Positions 2,661 through 14,741 of a stretch of 32,000 bases of DNA are shown one piece after another (the stretch's first letter is position 1; each line of letters begins with the position of its first letter). This DNA comes from Alphaproteobacteria bacterium. GTDB lineage: Bacteria; Pseudomonadota; Alphaproteobacteria; Rs-D84. The notes beneath the pieces are model-generated. The model was given only the letters and a program-made list of their open reading frames with translations. It had not been told where the DNA came from and did no database searches. The position numbers and the translations under genes were made by a program. The stretch covers positions 199,432 to 231,431 of the forward strand of contig JAFVFD010000002.1 in assembly GCA_017475605.1 (NCBI GenBank), written 5' to 3'.

Positions 2661-2930
2661 TTATTCTATCCACATAATCGGTTGACCGCTGTTATTATCA
2701 CGCGGCATTTTATTTGGCAAAACATACACCAAATTACCCGATTTATCGGTTGTTACACTGTCCACACCAATTGATTCAACATCTATTGATTTTGATTCAT
2801 CTGTGGGTCTACTTGTTTGGTTCACACCGGGTACGGAATCACCACGACCAAACAACACGATTGCCCCAACAACAATCAGCCCTAAAACAATCAAAGCAAT
2901 TACAATTTTCTTAATCATTGTTATCACCAT
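2661..2930 (-). CDS. small membrane-anchored protein (89 aa)
   Basis: N-terminal TM helix IKKIVIALIVLGLIVVGAIVLF followed by a polar Ser/Asp/Thr-rich segment. It lies 52 nt downstream of rho on the same strand. Confidence 0.5.
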   Translation of the reverse strand: MVITMIKKIVIALIVLGLIVVGAIVLFGRGDSVPGVNQTSRPTDESKSIDVESIGVDSVTTDKSGNLVYVLPNKMPRDNNSGQPIMWIE

Positions 2931-2939
2931 ATATGTGAT

Positions 2940-2948
2940 ATTGTATCA
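2940..2948 (-). promoter_or_regulatory. extended -10-like element TGATACAAT, inside the inverted repeat TGTGATA-N3-TATCACA
   Basis: The reverse complement of 2940-2948 reads TGATACAAT, preceded by TTTG. The hexamer ends 9 nt before the ATG at 2930. Confidence 0.3.
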
Positions 2949-2982
2949 CAAATATGGCAATAAACAACTTTTTATATAAAAA

Positions 2983-4251
2983 TTATTGATTCATGGAATT
3001 AAAGAAATCGTCGTTTGTTTTCGTCAAACGCAATTTATCCAGCAAGAATTCCATCGCTTCTAATGTGCCCATTGGATTGATGATGCGGCGCAGAACATAT
3101 GTTTTTGCCAATGTTTCTTTGCCCACCAACAAATCTTCTTTGCGGGTACCAGACTTGGTAATATCAATTGCCGGGTAAACACGTTTATCAGACAATTTTC
3201 TATCCAAAATAATTTCACTGTTACCTGTTCCTTTGAATTCTTCGAAAATAACTTCGTCCATTTTGGAACCAGTATCGACCAACGCAGTTGCGATAATGGT
3301 AAGTGAACCGCCCCCTTCGATATTACGTGCGGCACCAAAGAATCGTTTTGGACGCTGTAATGCGTACGCATCAACACCACCGGTTAAAACCTTGCCGCTG
3401 GACGGGACACATGTATTGTACGCACGACCTAAACGCGTAATAGAATCTAACAGAATCACGACATCTTGGCCGGCTTCGACCAAACGTTTTGCCTTTTCAA
3501 TTACCATTTCAGCGACCTGGATATGACGCGTTGCTGGTTCATCAAAAGTGGACGAAATAACTTCCCCTTTGACACTGCGTTGCATATCGGTAACTTCTTC
3601 GGGACGTTCGTCAATCAACAAAACGATTAATTTAACATCTGGATAGTTCGTTGCGATTGAATGCGCGATATTCTGTAACATAACAGTTTTACCTGTACGC
3701 GGTGGCGCAACGATAAGTGAACGTTGCCCCTTGCCCGTTGGGGAAATCAAATCAATAACACGCGCAGAAAGGTTGCGGCCTTTGTCCTTGTCGTCGGCAA
3801 CTTCCATTTTAAGCATTTCATCCGGATACAACGGTGTCATATCATCAAAAGAAACACGATGGCGCAGTTTTTCCGGTTCACCACCGTTTACGCGTTCAAT
3901 TGTTTCCAACGCGAAATACCGTTCAGATTCGTTTTGTGGTGCCTGAATTTGCCCCTCGATATAATCGCCGGTTTTCAAACCATATTTTTTAATAAGATTC
4001 GGCGACACATACAAATCGTCCGGCCCCGCCAGATAGTTTGATTCCGGCGCGCGCAGGAAACCAAAACCATCCTGCATGCGTTCCAAAACACCATCACCAA
4101 TTAATGTGATTTTTTTATCGGCCGCATAGACACGCATAACCGCGAAACGCAGTTGTTGTACATTTAATTGCGACGGGTTTTCAATACCCATATCTTCGGC
4201 CATTTTCAGCAATTGCTGTGGCGATTTCGCCTTTAATTCATTTATATGCAT
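2983..4251 (-). CDS. rho: transcription termination factor Rho
   Basis: 422 aa. N-terminal RNA-binding region (DGFGFLR), Walker A APPRTGKT, and [16 protein letters not shown] are all present; full-length Rho architecture. Confidence 0.97.
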
Positions 4252-4316
4252 AATTTTTCCTTTTGGAATACGGGTTTCCTGTGCGAACGCACCCCGCTGT
4301 TTTCTAAGACCTTTTT

Positions 4317-4345
4317 ATTATAAGGCAATTTGACAAAAAAGTCAA
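4317..4345 (-). promoter_or_regulatory. sigma70-type promoter of rho (TTGACT-N17-TATAAT)
   Basis: On the minus strand, TTGACT is at 4345-4340, the spacer is 17 nt, and TATAAT is at 4322-4317. This leaves a ~58-nt leader to the rho ATG at 4251. Confidence 0.65.
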
Positions 4346-4440
4346 GGGGTGCGAAAAACTCGCTGTTTTTTTCTTGCTTTTATTGCTTTTTTTTGCTCGA
4401 ATTATCAATATAAACAAGAACTAACCGAAAGGAAAGAATT

Positions 4441-4896
4441 ATGGCAGGCAGCATTAACAAAGTAATATTGGTTGGTAACGTGGGTCAAGACCCCCAGGTT
4501 CGCTCTATGCAGAGTGGCCAAAAAGTAGTCAGTTTTTCACTAGCGACATCGGATCGTTGGCGCGACCGCACATCCGGCGAACAGAAAGAACAGACCGAAT
4601 GGCATCGTGTTGTTATCTTTAATCCAAACTTGGTCGAAGTTGCCGAACGCATGTTACAGAAAGGAACCAAATTGTACTTGGAAGGCTCTCTGCGTACACG
4701 CAAGTGGCAAAATCAGCAAGGTGTTGACACATTCACAACAGAAGTTGTTTTGAATCCATACGCGGGTCAAATGATTATACTTGGTGGGGCCAAGGCTATG
4801 GACGGTACCGCGGGCGAATATGCCGCACAATCTGCGCCGGCACAACCACGCGAAGAAGTAACCCCATCACAAATTGATGACGATATTCCGTTTTAA
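4441..4896 (+). CDS. ssb: single-stranded DNA-binding protein
   Basis: OB-fold N-terminus (NKVILVGNVGQDP, TEWHRVVIF), a Gly/Ala/Pro/Gln-rich linker and the canonical acidic tail DDDIPF. RBS AAAGGAAAG is upstream. Confidence 0.96.
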   Translation: MAGSINKVILVGNVGQDPQVRSMQSGQKVVSFSLATSDRWRDRTSGEQKEQTEWHRVVIFNPNLVEVAERMLQKGTKLYLEGSLRTRKWQNQQGVDTFTTEVVLNPYAGQMIILGGAKAMDGTAGEYAAQSAPAQPREEVTPSQIDDDIPF

Positions 4897-10385: not shown

Positions 10386-12209
10386 ATGAGAAATCCGACA
10401 AGAAAACAACAACGCGCTAAACAAAACGCTATAGAATCCAGAGAAAACGCATTAAAAAACCAATTGAAACTGGACGAAAACGATGCGCAAAAAATAGAAT
10501 ATATTTTAAGTATGTTATTGGATCTTGATGCGAATAAAGCACGTGATATCATCAAAAACACCTCGTTTCGCTATTTGATTCAATCGCGCCAATCGGATAC
10601 TGCAGACAAACAAAATTCTCTTAAATGTCCTTTGGCATTGCATGCCATTGTGGTTGCATTATCAACATCCGGCGAAGATATTAACAATATCTTGAGTGAA
10701 ATGTCAGATTCTGCGATTAATTCATTGAAAGAATCTATCGCCATTGCAAAAACACAACCCTGTCCGGACAAAGCGTCTATCAACAAACTTATTGCTGAGT
10801 ATAAAGAAAAACGAAAAACAAAAAGAACTGACGAATGGCACACAGACAGCAATGGTGACACATATAAAGAATCACGCGCATTAACAAAAAACGAAATGCT
10901 GGATAACGAACGCAAATTAAAATCCGCCACCGTTACAGCAAACGTTATAGACTTATGGGACGATGCAATAGCAGAGTTGGACAAATGGTCTGTTGCCGTT
11001 GATACTTTCAAACGCGATTCACAAACTGTTGAACAGCAACAAATTGGGGCGCGAAAAGACCCATCTGATAATCAGAAACAAGGCCAAACCGTTCCTGATG
11101 AAATATTGTTTATGCGGGTTGGCGAATTTTTGTCTGTTCGTACGGCAAATCGCCTTAAAGAAGCCGGCATTGAATATATATGTGATTTGATTCAATATGG
11201 CAAATCTAACGTTAAAAAAATACACGGATTAGGTCCAAAGGGATATCACGAAATCTTTTCGTACCTGTTGCCGCGACACCTTGGCTTAGGGTCTGATATA
11301 ACGCTGTCTGATGAATCTTTACAGGCGATTAAAAAATTCAAATCTAATCTGGCCAATACCGACAAGTTAGATTTGGATATCCGCGAAACTAATTTGTCAA
11401 AACGTACAAAAAATTGCTTGTTGGGTGCTGGTATTAAGACTATTGGCGAATTAATCAAAAAGACCAAAGAAGAACTGTATAAAATACGTGGCTTTGGTCG
11501 TCGCTCAATGGTTGATATCGAAGACATGTTGAATAAAATGGATTTAAAATTAGCAACGCCGATAACTGCAAAACCAGATTTATCACAAATTCGCATCGCG
11601 GATTTGCGCTTTTTGGGTTGCGCCAAGAATCCTTTGATTGTCGGCGGTATTGATACTGTTGATAAGTTAATCAAAAAGAACAAACAAGAACTGCGTAAAA
11701 TACGTGGTTTGGGTCCCAAAGCGATTCAGAATATTATTTACTCTTTGGAAAAAATGGGTCTAGAATTGGCCAAGCCAACACCTAGAAAAACAAAAACTGT
11801 TAAAAAGCCACAAGTGGTTACTGCCCAACCCAAAACAATGTTAGACGTCAAAGCATTAGAAGCGCAGTTGGCTGCATTGGTTGAATTATATAAAAATGCC
11901 GAAGAAGACATGGCCAATGCCAAAACAAGACGTTTGGCAATCATGATGCAAATTGGCGAACAAAGCGATGATGATAAGAAAATCGAACAACTGTCCGATG
12001 CATTACAAACCGAAAACGCATCTATTAAAGAACATGCTGTTACGATGGAAAATTTGCGTCCTGCAAAAGAATTGTCAGACAAACTAACCGCCGCAAAAAA
12101 TGCTAAAAATGATGCACAAAAAGCATTAGATGCAGCAGAATCAACACTGCAATCTTTAAACACAGAGATAGCAGCATTGTTGGCACAAGCAAAACAAAAT
12201 TCTAAATAA
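10386..12209 (+). CDS. hypothetical protein with three tandem RNA polymerase alpha-subunit C-terminal-domain (alpha-CTD, helix-hairpin-helix)-like repeats and a C-terminal coiled coil
   Basis: GGAG lies 6 nt upstream of the ATG. Repeat cores are LSVRTANRLKEAGIEYICDLIQ...IHGLGPKG, LSKRTKNCLLGAGIKTIGELIK...IRGFGRRS and LGCAKNPLIVGGIDTVDKLIK...IRGLGPKA. From memory these align to E. coli alpha [22 protein letters not shown]...TPNLGKKS. The last ~130 aa are heptad-like and rich in Ala/Lys/Glu/Gln. Confidence 0.8.
   Translation: MRNPTRKQQRAKQNAIESRENALKNQLKLDENDAQKIEYILSMLLDLDANKARDIIKNTSFRYLIQSRQSDTADKQNSLKCPLALHAIVVALSTSGEDINNILSEMSDSAINSLKESIAIAKTQPCPDKASINKLIAEYKEKRKTKRTDEWHTDSNGDTYKESRALTKNEMLDNERKLKSATVTANVIDLWDDAIAELDKWSVAVDTFKRDSQTVEQQQIGARKDPSDNQKQGQTVPDEILFMRVGEFLSVRTANRLKEAGIEYICDLIQYGKSNVKKIHGLGPKGYHEIFSYLLPRHLGLGSDITLSDESLQAIKKFKSNLANTDKLDLDIRETNLSKRTKNCLLGAGIKTIGELIKKTKEELYKIRGFGRRSMVDIEDMLNKMDLKLATPITAKPDLSQIRIADLRFLGCAKNPLIVGGIDTVDKLIKKNKQELRKIRGLGPKAIQNIIYSLEKMGLELAKPTPRKTKTVKKPQVVTAQPKTMLDVKALEAQLAALVELYKNAEEDMANAKTRRLAIMMQIGEQSDDDKKIEQLSDALQTENASIKEHAVTMENLRPAKELSDKLTAAKNAKNDAQKALDAAESTLQSLNTEIAALLAQAKQNSK
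11100..11768 (+). repeat. three alpha-CTD-like coding repeats (about 11100-11291, 11376-11552, 11589-11768)
   Basis: Protein-level repeats as listed for the CDS. Repeats 2 and 3 are also similar at DNA level: 11451-11500 ttaatcaaaaagaccaaagaagaactgtataaaatacgtggctttggt versus 11667-11714 ttaatcaaaaagaacaaacaagaactgcgtaaaatacgtggtttgggt. Confidence 0.8.
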
Positions 12210-12225
12210 AAAAAAGGATACCTTA

Positions 12226-12915
12226 ATGGCGAATTTCGATATTAAACCATCAAAATGGCTGAACGAATCTAAACAAGGCAACTTTGTGTTCGCACCCGTT
12301 GGGAATGTTTGTAATGTCCAGATTTTTGATAAAATCAGCATGGAAAAATGCGCAGAAATGTTGGGCAACCTGGCACAAATAATTGCGCAATTACCCGCAA
12401 AACCAATTTATACAGCATCGGCAAAAATTGTATCACCATACGACATATCGCCAGATATATTCGTTTTTGATGTTATGATTAATTCTAGTGGTGGCGATGT
12501 AAATGTATATAAATCAATTTCGTCATTGTTTGCATTGGCAAAATCACGTGGCGCGATTGTTCGCACCCAGAATATTGGCTCGGCGGCCAGTTGCGCCAGC
12601 ATGCTGGCAATTCAGGGCACCCCGGGTTATCGCGTAATGTATGATACCGCATGTAACTATATCCATTTCGGCAAAACTACATTAACAGTCGAACGCGCAG
12701 ATGAATTTGATATTGCGACCCAAAACTCAAAAATCAATCGCGAACAGGTTCGCAAAGTTTATCAGGCATATACGAAACTGACACCGGACGAGATAAAAAA
12801 ATTCATCACTGTCGAAGGTGCCGGCAACTTATTCGCACGCAAATCCCTTGAAAAAGGTGTATGCGATTGGATTTTGACAATTGACGGCAAACTTATTGGT
12901 CGCAAAGGTCGATAA
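12226..12915 (+). CDS. ClpP-like (S14 family) serine peptidase, divergent orphan copy
   Basis: AAGGA lies 7 nt upstream. INSSGGDVNVYKSI...IGSAASCASMLA...NYIHFG parallels the ClpP motifs INSPGG, GQAASMG (catalytic Ser, here Ser122 at 12589-12591) and VMIHQP (catalytic His, here His147 at 12664-12666). The position of the third triad residue (Asp) is unclear. There is no terminator between this gene and the upstream gene. Confidence 0.75.
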   Translation: MANFDIKPSKWLNESKQGNFVFAPVGNVCNVQIFDKISMEKCAEMLGNLAQIIAQLPAKPIYTASAKIVSPYDISPDIFVFDVMINSSGGDVNVYKSISSLFALAKSRGAIVRTQNIGSAASCASMLAIQGTPGYRVMYDTACNYIHFGKTTLTVERADEFDIATQNSKINREQVRKVYQAYTKLTPDEIKKFITVEGAGNLFARKSLEKGVCDWILTIDGKLIGRKGR

Positions 12916-12924
12916 AGAACTATA

Positions 12925-12957
12925 AAAAATGGGGCGGCTTGTTCGGCCCCATTTTTG
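12925..12957 (+). terminator. intrinsic terminator after the ClpP-like gene
   Basis: Stem ATGGGGC (12929-12935) pairs with GCCCCAT (12946-12952), followed by TTTTTG and preceded by an A-run. Confidence 0.75.
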
Positions 12958-13028: not shown

Positions 13029-14714
13029 ATGCAATTTATAATACCAGGACATTCGGTTTTATTTCGTTATCACAGCCGTGATCATTTTGCTAAGATTTTT
13101 TGGGGCACCGAAGAACCAGAAATTATTGACCAGCCTTATTTTTCAGATATTTCTTCTATTACAACCAATGAAAAATCAAGTTTTTTTGGTCTGCTCAAAC
13201 GCAGAAATACTGCGCTATTTGTTCCATTTAAAAAAACAACTATCTCGGCAGAAAGTACCGGTATACCAAACCTGAATTTTGTTTTCTTTGATGGCGATGT
13301 AACACTTACCAAATCTGTATCTGACCCAAATATGTTACCGTTGGCGGTTGGCGGAACATTCAAGATGTCTGGTTGTCGCGAATTATTTTTAAAACTGGGG
13401 AATAAGCATCACCTGCCCTTTGCCGAAACCATAAACCTTACGAACGCAATAGAAAGTTTGGACGAACTGATTGGTAAATTGCCGGTTGGTTTGAAAAAAT
13501 TGATTGTCCAACAATCTTTGACAAAATCGATAGGCAATGATGCAAAAAAATTAGAATCCGCACGAAAATTTGTCGAATACTACCCAGATGTAAACATTAA
13601 TGATGGTGATTTAGACCCTTTAATTTATAAACCGACTGTTTCTGAAAACATCATTACTGTTGATACTCAAAAATCAGAATACATCCACCAAAGAGAAGAA
13701 ATTGTAATTGCTCAAACCCAATTACCAGAAAATCGCAAAACAATAGGTCAATATGCAAAAAAACTGGCCTTAGACCCAGAAATACCTGTTAACGATGTGA
13801 ACAAATTACGCGATTATATCCGCGCCGTTGCGATTCCTGAACTGATTCTGGACACAAGTGTTCAACACGTTATACGAACAGACGAAGTTCGCATGTTGCT
13901 GGCCGAAGATTATAACGACATCAAAAACATTATTTTGCGCGAAATAAAATTTGTTGAACCCATCGCAACAAACTTAAAAACAGCTACAAATGTTGTACGC
14001 CCAATTGTAAAAATGTTTTATACCATGGGCAAGCCACTTGATGAAATCCAAATACTTGTCAAACAGGCTCTTGATGCACAACCCACCAACAGCCCGACAC
14101 CAACTGCACCCCAACAATTACCAAAAGAAGATAAACCAGCCAATAGCAAACCAGAAAAGCGCATGCTGTGGTTAAATCAGTCAGTTATCGACAGAATAAA
14201 CAGCTGGGCAATTGATGACAAAAACATTGCATTGGAAAGACTTGATTGGTTTTTGAATAATCCTGGTGCTGTCCCTAAGGATACTAACAGATTTGAAATA
14301 GTTGAAGAAATAGCGGAAATAAAGAAACACAGACGCGGTGGGTTACGCCTTTATGCGTCAAGACAGGTTGATCCTGCTTTAATGATATTTGATGCGGGTA
14401 ATAAAGGCGAACAAAAAGATTTGGACCCGCGTAAAATGGCAAAAGATTTCAAACAAAAATATGGTTCCGCCAGAACGGTTTCCGATCAACTGGCAAATGC
14501 AGCACCCGGTGCCGAAACCGTCCAAATACAATGCACATCTTATATTTCTGGCAAAACAATAAAATTTTTCGAAACATTTTATAATTTTGACACCGATACG
14601 GTCCGTCAAAAACTGGGGATAAAAACCGACACCAAACCCCAACCAGAACAGAAGAAACCTGACAACAACATGTTGGCAAAAGTTTGGTCTGGACGCGGTT
14701 CAAACGGAAATTAA
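13029..14714 (+). CDS. large hypothetical protein (561 aa) with a Pro/Thr/Gln-rich linker and a C-terminal RelE/ParE-superfamily (HigB / addiction-module-killer-like) domain
   Basis: The ORF-track start at 12939 is a TTG inside the upstream terminator, so I use the ATG at 13029 (AAAGG lies 10 nt upstream). The linker is AQPTNSPTPTAPQQLPKEDKPANSKPE. Downstream of it come WFLNNPGA, AEIKKHRRGGLRLYA and LMIFDAGNKGEQKDLD. These match my memory of the killer-protein pattern LGNPGD, SELRIDYGPGYRVYF and ILLCGGDKSTQDKDI. Confidence 0.7.
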   Translation: MQFIIPGHSVLFRYHSRDHFAKIFWGTEEPEIIDQPYFSDISSITTNEKSSFFGLLKRRNTALFVPFKKTTISAESTGIPNLNFVFFDGDVTLTKSVSDPNMLPLAVGGTFKMSGCRELFLKLGNKHHLPFAETINLTNAIESLDELIGKLPVGLKKLIVQQSLTKSIGNDAKKLESARKFVEYYPDVNINDGDLDPLIYKPTVSENIITVDTQKSEYIHQREEIVIAQTQLPENRKTIGQYAKKLALDPEIPVNDVNKLRDYIRAVAIPELILDTSVQHVIRTDEVRMLLAEDYNDIKNIILREIKFVEPIATNLKTATNVVRPIVKMFYTMGKPLDEIQILVKQALDAQPTNSPTPTAPQQLPKEDKPANSKPEKRMLWLNQSVIDRINSWAIDDKNIALERLDWFLNNPGAVPKDTNRFEIVEEIAEIKKHRRGGLRLYASRQVDPALMIFDAGNKGEQKDLDPRKMAKDFKQKYGSARTVSDQLANAAPGAETVQIQCTSYISGKTIKFFETFYNFDTDTVRQKLGIKTDTKPQPEQKKPDNNMLAKVWSGRGSNGN

Positions 14715-14717
14715 ATA

Positions 14718-14741
14718 AACGGGGCAAAAGCTCCGTTTTTT
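14718..14741 (+). terminator. intrinsic terminator after the 561-aa gene
   Basis: AACGGGG (14718-14724), loop CAAAAG, CTCCGTT (14731-14737), then TTTTTT. Confidence 0.7.

Follow-up and report, generated by a model that had tools for sequence, protein, structure and literature searches.

A predicted HigB-2-like RelE/ParE-fold domain inside a modular protein encoded beside a ClpP-like peptidase in an uncultured alphaproteobacterium

The window analysed in this work is a stretch of 32,000 nucleotides from contig JAFVFD010000002.1 (assembly GCA_017475605.1) of an uncultured alphaproteobacterium, and the gene at issue in it encodes a 561-amino-acid (aa) protein annotated by NCBI, in this metagenome-assembled genome, as hypothetical protein IJ866_01035 (Alphaproteobacteria bacterium). 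Sequence comparison and structure prediction indicate that aa 377-480 of this protein are a genuine, very divergent RelE/ParE-fold (BECR) domain, closest to toxins of the gp49/HigB-2 type (TIGR02683). RelE/ParE toxins are the textbook components of two-gene toxin-antitoxin systems. The domain described here is a cassette within a larger protein, with no antitoxin encoded beside it or fused to it.

13029..14714, plus strand: gene of the 561-aa modular protein (open reading frame, translation, 100% match to P0001)
14157..14468, plus strand: predicted RelE/ParE-fold (BECR) domain of the gp49/HigB-2 (TIGR02683) kind, aa 377-480 (AlphaFold model, Foldseek, TIGR02683, hhalign, invariant columns)

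Sequence, fold and active-site residues of the RelE-like domain

In an NCBIfam scan, TIGR02683 was the sole family matched by the domain of the window (E=0.023, 15.1 bits), and it was again the sole match of the equivalent domain of the homologue P0006 (E=2.7e-4, 21.3 bits), which is 24% identical to that of the window. Twelve real stand-alone toxins were then fetched from plasmids by means of a consensus-like bait, and their hhalign comparison with a three-member profile of the fused domains gave a score of 35.9 over 86 columns (probability 86.5%, P=4.5e-6). Column-shuffled controls scored 11.1 +/- 2.2, with a maximum of 21.6, so that 0 out of 300 approached the real value. Searches of PDB sequences with the domain, with the domain profile and with the profile of the stand-alone toxins found no RelE/HigB chain, which points to a toxin subfamily without a solved relative detectable by sequence, and means that the residues of Vibrio cholerae HigB2 (VcHigB2) cannot be mapped onto the domain by alignment.

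The AlphaFold (AF2) model of aa 377-533 (predicted local distance difference test, pLDDT, 83.4; predicted template modelling score, pTM, 0.82) shows for the RelE-like domain the topology b1-a1-a2-b2-b3-b4-b5-a3 (E-H-H-E-E-E-E-H), the strand-helix-helix-sheet order of RelE. When the domain model was compared with the PDB by Foldseek, the best 14 matches were all toxins that belong to the RelE/ParE superfamily, including Mycobacterium tuberculosis RelE1, an archaeal RelE, V. cholerae HigB2 and Streptococcus pneumoniae HigB, as well as Cami1 (CARF-RelE), Thermus thermophilus RelE, HigB1, YafQ and ParE1. The best match was 9g12_B (E=3.9e-3, prob 1.0, template modelling score 0.71 on target), and S. 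pneumoniae HigB was again the first fold match of a separate, full-length model. The structure comparison that the first-pass annotation had proposed as a check therefore placed RelE, HigB, YafQ and ParE on top and, together with the TIGR02683 matches and the hhalign P value of 4.5e-6, indicates that the RelE/HigB likeness claimed there is real homology. The open reading frame, frame and peptide were also as given in that annotation (MLWLNQ...MAKDF, aa 379-474, nucleotides 14163-14450), and its coordinates were correct, their end at 14460 taking in the KQK beyond MAKDF.

The signature residues of the domain are E430-I-K432, R440-L-Y442 and G457-N-K459-x-x-Q462. When 11 stand-alone toxins and the three fused domains are aligned jointly, no columns but E, R, G and K are invariant; of these, E comes from E-[LI]-[RK], R from R-x-Y, and both G and K from G-[DN]-K; in the model these residues lie at the end of b3, at the start of b4 and just after b5. 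All four are kept in the fused domain. K432, R440 and K459 (K56, R64 and K83 in domain numbering) are invariant in fused domains that share 24-46% identity. They are topologically equivalent to K54/R61/R81 of RelE and to R51/R64/K84 of VcHigB2, a mapping that is topological and made without structural superposition. R51, R64 and K84 have been identified by mutagenesis as the catalytic residues of VcHigB2, activity falling 170- to 3000-fold (PMC5416850), and a [KR], R pattern matching R61 and R81 of RelE was described in Tox-RelE domains by Zhang et al. (PMC3482391). No residue of the domain was assignable to Tyr87/Tyr82. The retained residues, as placed by alignment and model, are consistent with an active mRNase without proving one.

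A weak Pfam match to SUI1 (translation initiation factor) was recorded at window positions 14409-14531 (aa 461-501; E=0.017, 16 bits, below cut-off). This match, which runs from the last part of the RelE-like domain into the first part of the extension behind it, is probably fortuitous.

Architecture, boundaries and relatives of the 561-aa protein

The full-length model (pLDDT 57.6, pTM 0.33) consists of ordered blocks with low-confidence joins. Besides the RelE-like domain, the following parts of the protein can be told apart:

aa 1-77: poorly predicted in the full-length model
13266..13628, plus strand: N-terminal alpha/beta repeat domain, aa ~80-200, the module common to all family members (AF2 pLDDT 66-85)
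aa 201-300: low confidence in the full-length model
13929..14078, plus strand: helical region, aa ~301-350, with a conserved DYNDIKxIILxEI motif (AF2 helices 284-350)
14079..14156, plus strand: Pro/Gln/Thr/Lys-rich flexible linker, aa about 350-376, AQPTNSPTPTAPQQLPKEDKPANSKPE (pLDDT <50 for aa 352-375)
14469..14633, plus strand: 55-aa extension (helix, long beta-hairpin, short helix), aa 481-535 (pLDDT 86-90)
14634..14711, plus strand: disordered C-terminal tail ending ...LAKVWSGRGSNGN, aa 536-561 (pLDDT <50)

The N-terminal repeat domain has a leucine-rich repeat (LRR)-like sequence pattern (GDxDCSG...LP..V.G...), and a fold search with it rendered only low-probability EAL/LRR-like matches. 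The DYNDIKxIILxEI motif of the helical region is also found in the homologues P0003, P0008 and P0010, and a linker is present in P0003 and P0006 with a sequence that is not conserved. The extension, which carries an invariant ETxYxFDxD...LG, is the best-predicted part of the protein and is modelled as one body with the RelE-like domain. Its profile (Aext) matches only the three groups of RelE-bearing homologues, so that the extension always stands alongside the cassette. By eye, a tail motif of the form ~[LF]-[FLW]-x-G-x-G-S-x-[DG]-x-stop (window 14673-14711) is also seen at the C-termini of P0003, P0010 and P0012, where it follows otherwise differing C-terminal modules; it may serve as a signal for degradation (a degron), docking or secretion.

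Two hairpins delimit the gene:

12931..12956, plus strand: terminator-like hairpin GGGGC...GCCCC followed by TTTTT, between the ClpP-like and 561-aa genes (read from the sequence)
14717..14738, plus strand: intrinsic-terminator-like hairpin and T-run right after the stop of the 561-aa gene (terminator scan)

The first of them (hairpin 12931-12950 plus T-run) was missed by the terminator scanner owing to its long loop. With a terminator at either end, the 561-aa gene appears to be monocistronic. An alternative TTG start at 12939 lies within the loop of this hairpin, that is, within the terminator of the upstream ClpP-like gene, and the ATG at 13029 is therefore the likely start; the start was called likewise in L004, an independent assembly that carries a 98%-identical copy of the gene with identical neighbours. 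The open reading frame of the RelE-like fusion is unbroken in four independent assemblies. The fusion of the RelE-like domain into a larger protein is therefore real, and the earlier description of a RelE-like segment inside a continuous 561-aa frame holds.

An exhaustive HMMER search of 1.84 billion representatives rendered only 15 relatives of the protein, and the RelE-like domain is present in three of them (P0003, P0004 and P0006); the phmmer matches P0005-P0016 cover aa ~75-235. One candidate, P0009, was rejected as a low-complexity artefact. A word-indexed homologue search found only the protein itself and its 98% copy, and the same kind of search with the domain alignment returned nothing and missed known members too, probably owing to a limitation of the search itself. 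With the domain and N-terminal alignments as queries, GTDB genomes, JGI metagenomes and IMG/VR yielded no relatives. The family relatives come from ruminant and other gut metagenomes. Homologues bearing the RelE-like cassette are 769 and 972 aa long, and the cassette is followed by 150-330 residues in P0003 and P0006 and by ~80 in the window protein. The modular family to which the 561-aa gene belongs is rare and evolves fast.

At the position of the RelE cassette, six other members (P0005, P0008, P0010, P0011, P0012 and P0015; e.g. L005 10001-14443 and L003 1462-2931) carry a block of ~150 aa, here called 'B', which begins with IKKYIS and contains a single invariant His behind a hydrophobic strand. 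Nothing in NCBIfam, among PDB chains or in profile comparisons matched this block. The idea that it is itself a RelE-like domain found no support in hhalign, NCBIfam and the PDB profile, and it could be another toxin fold. Two of these members were found near genes of VirB4 type: P0011 (L003 3-2931) is immediately preceded by a C-terminal VirB4 fragment and the gene of a lipoprotein, and P0015 is ~4 kb from a VirB4/TrbE gene (L006 3805-6222 and 10001-11476).

The genes that flank the 561-aa gene are not antitoxin-like, that of the ClpP-like peptidase being upstream and that of a 277/302-aa membrane protein downstream, and an hhalign comparison of the whole protein and of the extension with 11 helix-turn-helix (HTH) antidotes showed no resemblance (P>=0.09, i.e. 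at least 0.09). The first-pass annotation was thus right in finding no separate antitoxin gene, and an antidote domain is likewise absent from the protein by this comparison. That the extension is a fused HTH antidote was considered, on account of ETFYNFDT and the N-termini of the antidotes, and rejected, the alignment covering 12 columns with P=0.09.

Two further suggestions of that annotation fared less well. Separate translation of the domain from the internal Met at 14163 is unlikely, since this residue, Met379, is replaced by Ala in P0003 and by Thr in P0006, and no purine-rich Shine-Dalgarno sequence precedes it, though one precedes most genes of the window. The notion that the N-terminal ~380 aa act as an inhibitor in cis or as a sensor found no support: the full-length model shows no confident packing between domains (pTM 0.33), the cassette is internal in P0003 and P0006, where other modules come after it, and a 328-aa form (P0004/L024) seems to be devoid of the N-terminal part. 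This form (L024 1-1413, on a 1.4-kb contig) consists of helix, linker, RelE-like domain, extension and tail, starts just before the linker and adjoins ctpB; its homology to P0003 begins only at ~aa 460 and stops are found in all frames upstream, so that it may be a real truncated variant or a chimeric assembly.

Genomic neighbourhood and the ClpP-like peptidase

The window is ordinary chromosome, with rho, ssb, carD, the pyruvate:ferredoxin oxidoreductase (PFOR) gene, secG, rnc, lepB and genes for a penicillin-binding protein and a ClpA/B-type ATPase. A tblastn search of plasmids and phages with the 561-aa protein gave no match, and the locus is therefore not a known mobile element. The same site beside the PFOR gene holds, in a clade of uncultured gut/rumen Alphaproteobacteria, a conserved gene pair of which the first member codes for a coiled-coil protein whose middle part is of DNA-binding type and the second for a ClpP-like peptidase of ~228 aa. 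In the window the pair reads as follows:

10386..12209, plus strand: 607-aa protein with an N-domain, three RpoA C-terminal-domain (CTD)-like helix-hairpin-helix stretches and a C-terminal coiled coil (Pfam RNA_pol_A_CTD 1e-35, three stretches)
12226..12915, plus strand: ClpP-like serine peptidase, 229 aa (Pfam CLP_protease 3.5e-12; synteny)

In the peptidase, Ser and His align with the catalytic residues of ClpP and the position of Asp is occupied by Gly. It is distant from canonical ClpP (23 bits to ClpPs of the PDB) and forms 39 clusters of 38-80% identity at the PFOR-ctpB locus of this clade. Seven loci in all have the peptidase at the PFOR-side site, and it is a conserved neighbour of the family in four of the five loci that have a family member. 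The link to the adjacent peptidase raised in the first-pass annotation is supported in part, as regards a conserved neighbour (4/5 loci), and is weakened by the terminator that separates the two genes here. The family genes are found at this one PFOR-side chromosomal locus, where their arrangement varies:

Window and L004: family member as a separate gene 3' of the peptidase gene
L005 (P0012, 1480 aa): family member as a separate gene 3' of the peptidase gene
L002 (P0006, with the RelE-like domain): large fusion in the slot of the coiled-coil gene, ahead of the peptidase gene
P0010 contig: large fusion in the slot of the coiled-coil gene, ahead of the peptidase gene
L001 (P0003): family gene alone

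The long forms of the family end in the HTH-plus-coiled-coil module of the separate coiled-coil protein, as is seen when aa 186-394 of L020_416 are compared with aa 677-882 of P0008 (E=9.5e-17). The 607-aa protein of the window also matches P0006 (E=0.006), and its C-terminus that of P0005 (E=3e-4). In its orthologues L020_416 and L021_439 the N-domain and the coiled coil are kept, and an excisionase-like HTH replaces the RpoA-CTD repeats; the only PADLOC match of these repeats is to the corresponding part of BREX PglW. The 561-aa protein, the 607-aa protein and the peptidase are thus tied to one another by gene fusions and by a shared, conserved setting. Of the three, the peptidase shows strong conservation, while its partners diverge and shuffle domains fast, a pattern that is typical of conflict systems.

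Two other genes may be mentioned. Downstream of the 561-aa gene, a 302-aa open reading frame (window 14770-15678, plus strand) has a TTG start that coincides with the best promoter-like site of the region, TTGACA-16-TATATT, and for which a related assembly calls a 277-aa product, implying an ATG at 14845; the product, which matches no family, is rich in Arg at its N-terminus, contains a hydrophobic segment and carries GN-x-Y/F repeats in its C-terminal part. In L005 (831-3473, minus strand) a gene inserted between ssb and carD encodes a protein of 880 aa in which BspA-like 'TNTSNMF...IP..LF' repeats are numerous; it is absent from the window.

Comparison with known systems and proposed function

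The killers of the gp49/HigB-2 type (TIGR02683), which go with an HTH antidote, are alike in fold and are the only family with similarity at the level of sequence, sharing the motifs E-[LI]-[RK], G-x-R-x-Y and G-[DN]-K-x-x-Q and the four family-invariant residues. They are, however, stand-alone proteins of ~100 aa, and for the plasmid toxins used here the antidote gene follows the toxin gene in 11/11 loci with a listed neighbour, whereas the domain of the window is a cassette in a 561-aa protein without antidote gene or domain and is followed by a 55-aa extension that the stand-alone toxins lack. Cami1 (CARF-RelE, a ribosome-dependent RNase ancillary to type III CRISPR; PDB 8phj), the ninth fold match of the domain model, likewise has its RelE fold joined to a larger regulatory or sensor part, and acts on the ribosome without a classical antitoxin; in contrast to it, the window protein has no CARF match, no CRISPR context (its surroundings being PFOR, ClpP-like, secG, rnc and lepB genes) and a different N-terminal architecture.

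RelE/ParE-fold domains in larger proteins have been described by Gerdes (2025), including gp49-HTH fusions, PtuZ of ptuXYZ and ToxM (PMC11980606), and that paper left unanalysed many multidomain BECR proteins for which no antitoxin could be identified (PMC11980606). Unlike in the multidomain toxins described in that work, HTH antidote domains, PIN-like domains and transmembrane segments are all lacking from the window protein, and the partner genes, encoding a ClpP-like peptidase and an RpoA-CTD/coiled-coil protein, are different. The Tox-RelE polymorphic toxins (PMC3482391) are similar in that they have a RelE domain late in a large modular protein with swappable cassettes and show a [KR], R pattern, but the present protein showed no trafficking domain and neither RHS nor filamentous repeats, and no HINT peptidase or Imm54-type immunity gene turned up. 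Secretion and trafficking domains were detected neither in the window protein (Pfam, NCBIfam, PHROGs and PADLOC) nor in 10 homologues (Pfam), the downstream genes differ among loci and, unlike in polymorphic toxins, the RelE-like domain does not stand at the extreme C-terminus. The 561-aa protein thus belongs to the superfamily and is neither a type II module, nor a polymorphic toxin, nor a Cami1; it therefore represents a new architecture, extension and partner set within a known theme.

Judging from the model and the conserved positions, the antitoxin-less cassette is, on balance, probably a tethered ribosome-dependent mRNase that is held in check post-translationally. The RelE-like domain, tethered by the flexible linker, would enter the ribosomal A site and cut mRNA by means of the basic residues K432, R440 and K459. 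Its activity would be checked by the co-conserved extension, which is a candidate because it packs on the RelE-like domain in the model, by the ClpP-like peptidase with the coiled-coil partner, or by both, and a separately encoded antitoxin would not be involved. It can also be imagined, in a more far-reaching form that we regard as rather unlikely, that the three adjacent genes, for the DNA-binding coiled-coil protein, the dedicated ClpP-like peptidase and the repeat-domain/RelE-like protein, are an undescribed, chromosomally fixed conflict module in which an antitoxin-less, single-chain HigB-2-like mRNase is gated by proteolysis. The toxin would then be released or activated by cleavage at the flexible linker, or be turned over continuously via the shared C-terminal tail, so that a built-in protease would take the place of the logic of antitoxin plus Lon/ClpXP in a toxin-protease system whose parts would be fused, in some genomes, into one protein of 900-1500 aa.

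Several points weigh against a tethered mRNase under post-translational control, or against the homology on which it is built. The model of aa 377-533 derives from a small alignment of homologues with only 3 effective sequences, and the Foldseek E-values are modest (about 4e-3). The cut-off of TIGR02683 is 62.85 bits, far above the 15-21 bits scored with the curated model, and Pfam, PHROGs and PADLOC gave nothing relevant for the domain or for the whole protein; the Pfam check proposed at the outset thus returned no family, and it was NCBIfam that supplied one, TIGR02683, below its threshold. Asn replaces the conserved Asp of GGDK in the window protein and P0003, P0006 having kept it, the Arg of the ELR motif is Lys, and the equivalence of the basic residues to those of RelE and VcHigB2 is of a topological nature. 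At the locus, a terminator stands between the ClpP-like and 561-aa genes, and the RelE-bearing homologue P0003 (L001) has no ClpP-like neighbour. Comparison of the window gene (13029-14714) with its L004 copy (2901-4586) shows 14 nonsynonymous and 5 synonymous changes, of which 0 and 2, respectively, fall in the RelE-like domain, and the resulting ratio of nonsynonymous to synonymous polymorphism (pN/pS) of ~0.78 is uninformative since substitutions in this strain pair are too few.

A less probable reading, to which some weight should nevertheless be given, is that the RelE fold has been kept but is catalytically dead, and would be used for binding ribosomes, RNA or protein as one module within a protein of scaffold-like kind. 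A dead domain would explain why an antitoxin is not needed, neither its gene nor an antidote domain having been found, and it would fit with the D-to-N and R-to-K changes in the signature motifs, with the unrelated 'B' block at the same position in other family members, with loci that have only the coiled-coil protein and the ClpP-like gene and no toxin-bearing protein, and with the possible short form lacking the N-terminal part. However, the four residues invariant in the toxins are also invariant in three fused domains of 24-46% identity, and invariance at such low identity argues for constraint on positions of active-site type; moreover, P0006 keeps the Asp, and active VcHigB2 has a Lys (K84; PMC5416850) at the place of the corresponding Arg. 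The producer would also need no antitoxin if the protein were an effector, secreted or translocated according to the logic of polymorphic toxins or type IV substrates, whose RNase acts in another cell, bacterial or eukaryotic. The modular and fast-evolving character of the family, in which a conserved N-terminal repeat domain is joined to exchangeable cassettes downstream, the tail motif common to several members, the position of two members beside or near VirB4 genes and the occurrence of Tox-RelE domains in polymorphic toxins (PMC3482391) speak for it. It is nonetheless improbable, since neither a signal peptide nor any known domain of trafficking, RHS or filamentous type was detected by Pfam, NCBIfam and PADLOC, the homologues carry the cassette internally and not at the extreme C-terminus, no immunity gene is conserved downstream (ctpB, the ClpP-like gene or a membrane protein gene being found there, depending on the locus), the sibling proteins carry DNA-binding modules of cytoplasmic type (RpoA-CTD, excisionase-like HTH), and no secretion-system genes lie within the window.

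That the domain acts like ParE, as a gyrase poison, and not as a RelE-like mRNase seems very unlikely. Structures of ParE1 and ParE2 (8c24_B and 7r5a_A) are among the fold matches, and RelE and ParE are not cleanly split by Pfam families (PMC11980606); but it is RelE and HigB that match the fold best, the sole relatives at the sequence level are of the TIGR02683/gp49 type, which are ribosome-dependent mRNases (PMC11980606), and basic residues typical of mRNases are conserved. Least credible of all, in our opinion, is that the resemblance arose by chance or that a toxin is made separately from Met379. The sub-threshold scores with the curated model and the in-frame ATG at 14163 would allow it, but none of the 300 shuffles came near the real score, TIGR02683 was matched independently by two divergent members, the fold matches are to RelE/ParE toxins and, as to separate production, the homologues have Ala or Thr in place of Met379, with no Shine-Dalgarno sequence ahead of it in the window.

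Fused RelE domains were already known, and what is new in this case is the architecture, the co-conserved extension and the set of partners, in a sparsely sequenced lineage. Toxin folds that lie without antitoxin inside larger proteins show that such effectors can be controlled in alternative ways, and the dedicated ClpP-like peptidase, which like the architecture has been found so far only in uncultured gut/rumen Alphaproteobacteria, is a candidate for a new partner in this control. The case also illustrates that a sub-threshold match of 15 bits, missed by every curated library, can be a true homologue. If the domain were inactive, a toxin fold would have been put to another use; if gating by a protease were true, it would amount to a new regulatory logic for toxins that target translation. 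Although the theme as such is not new and the function is one that we infer from sequence and model, the link to the peptidase, taken together with the antitoxin-free design, provides a concrete, testable hypothesis.

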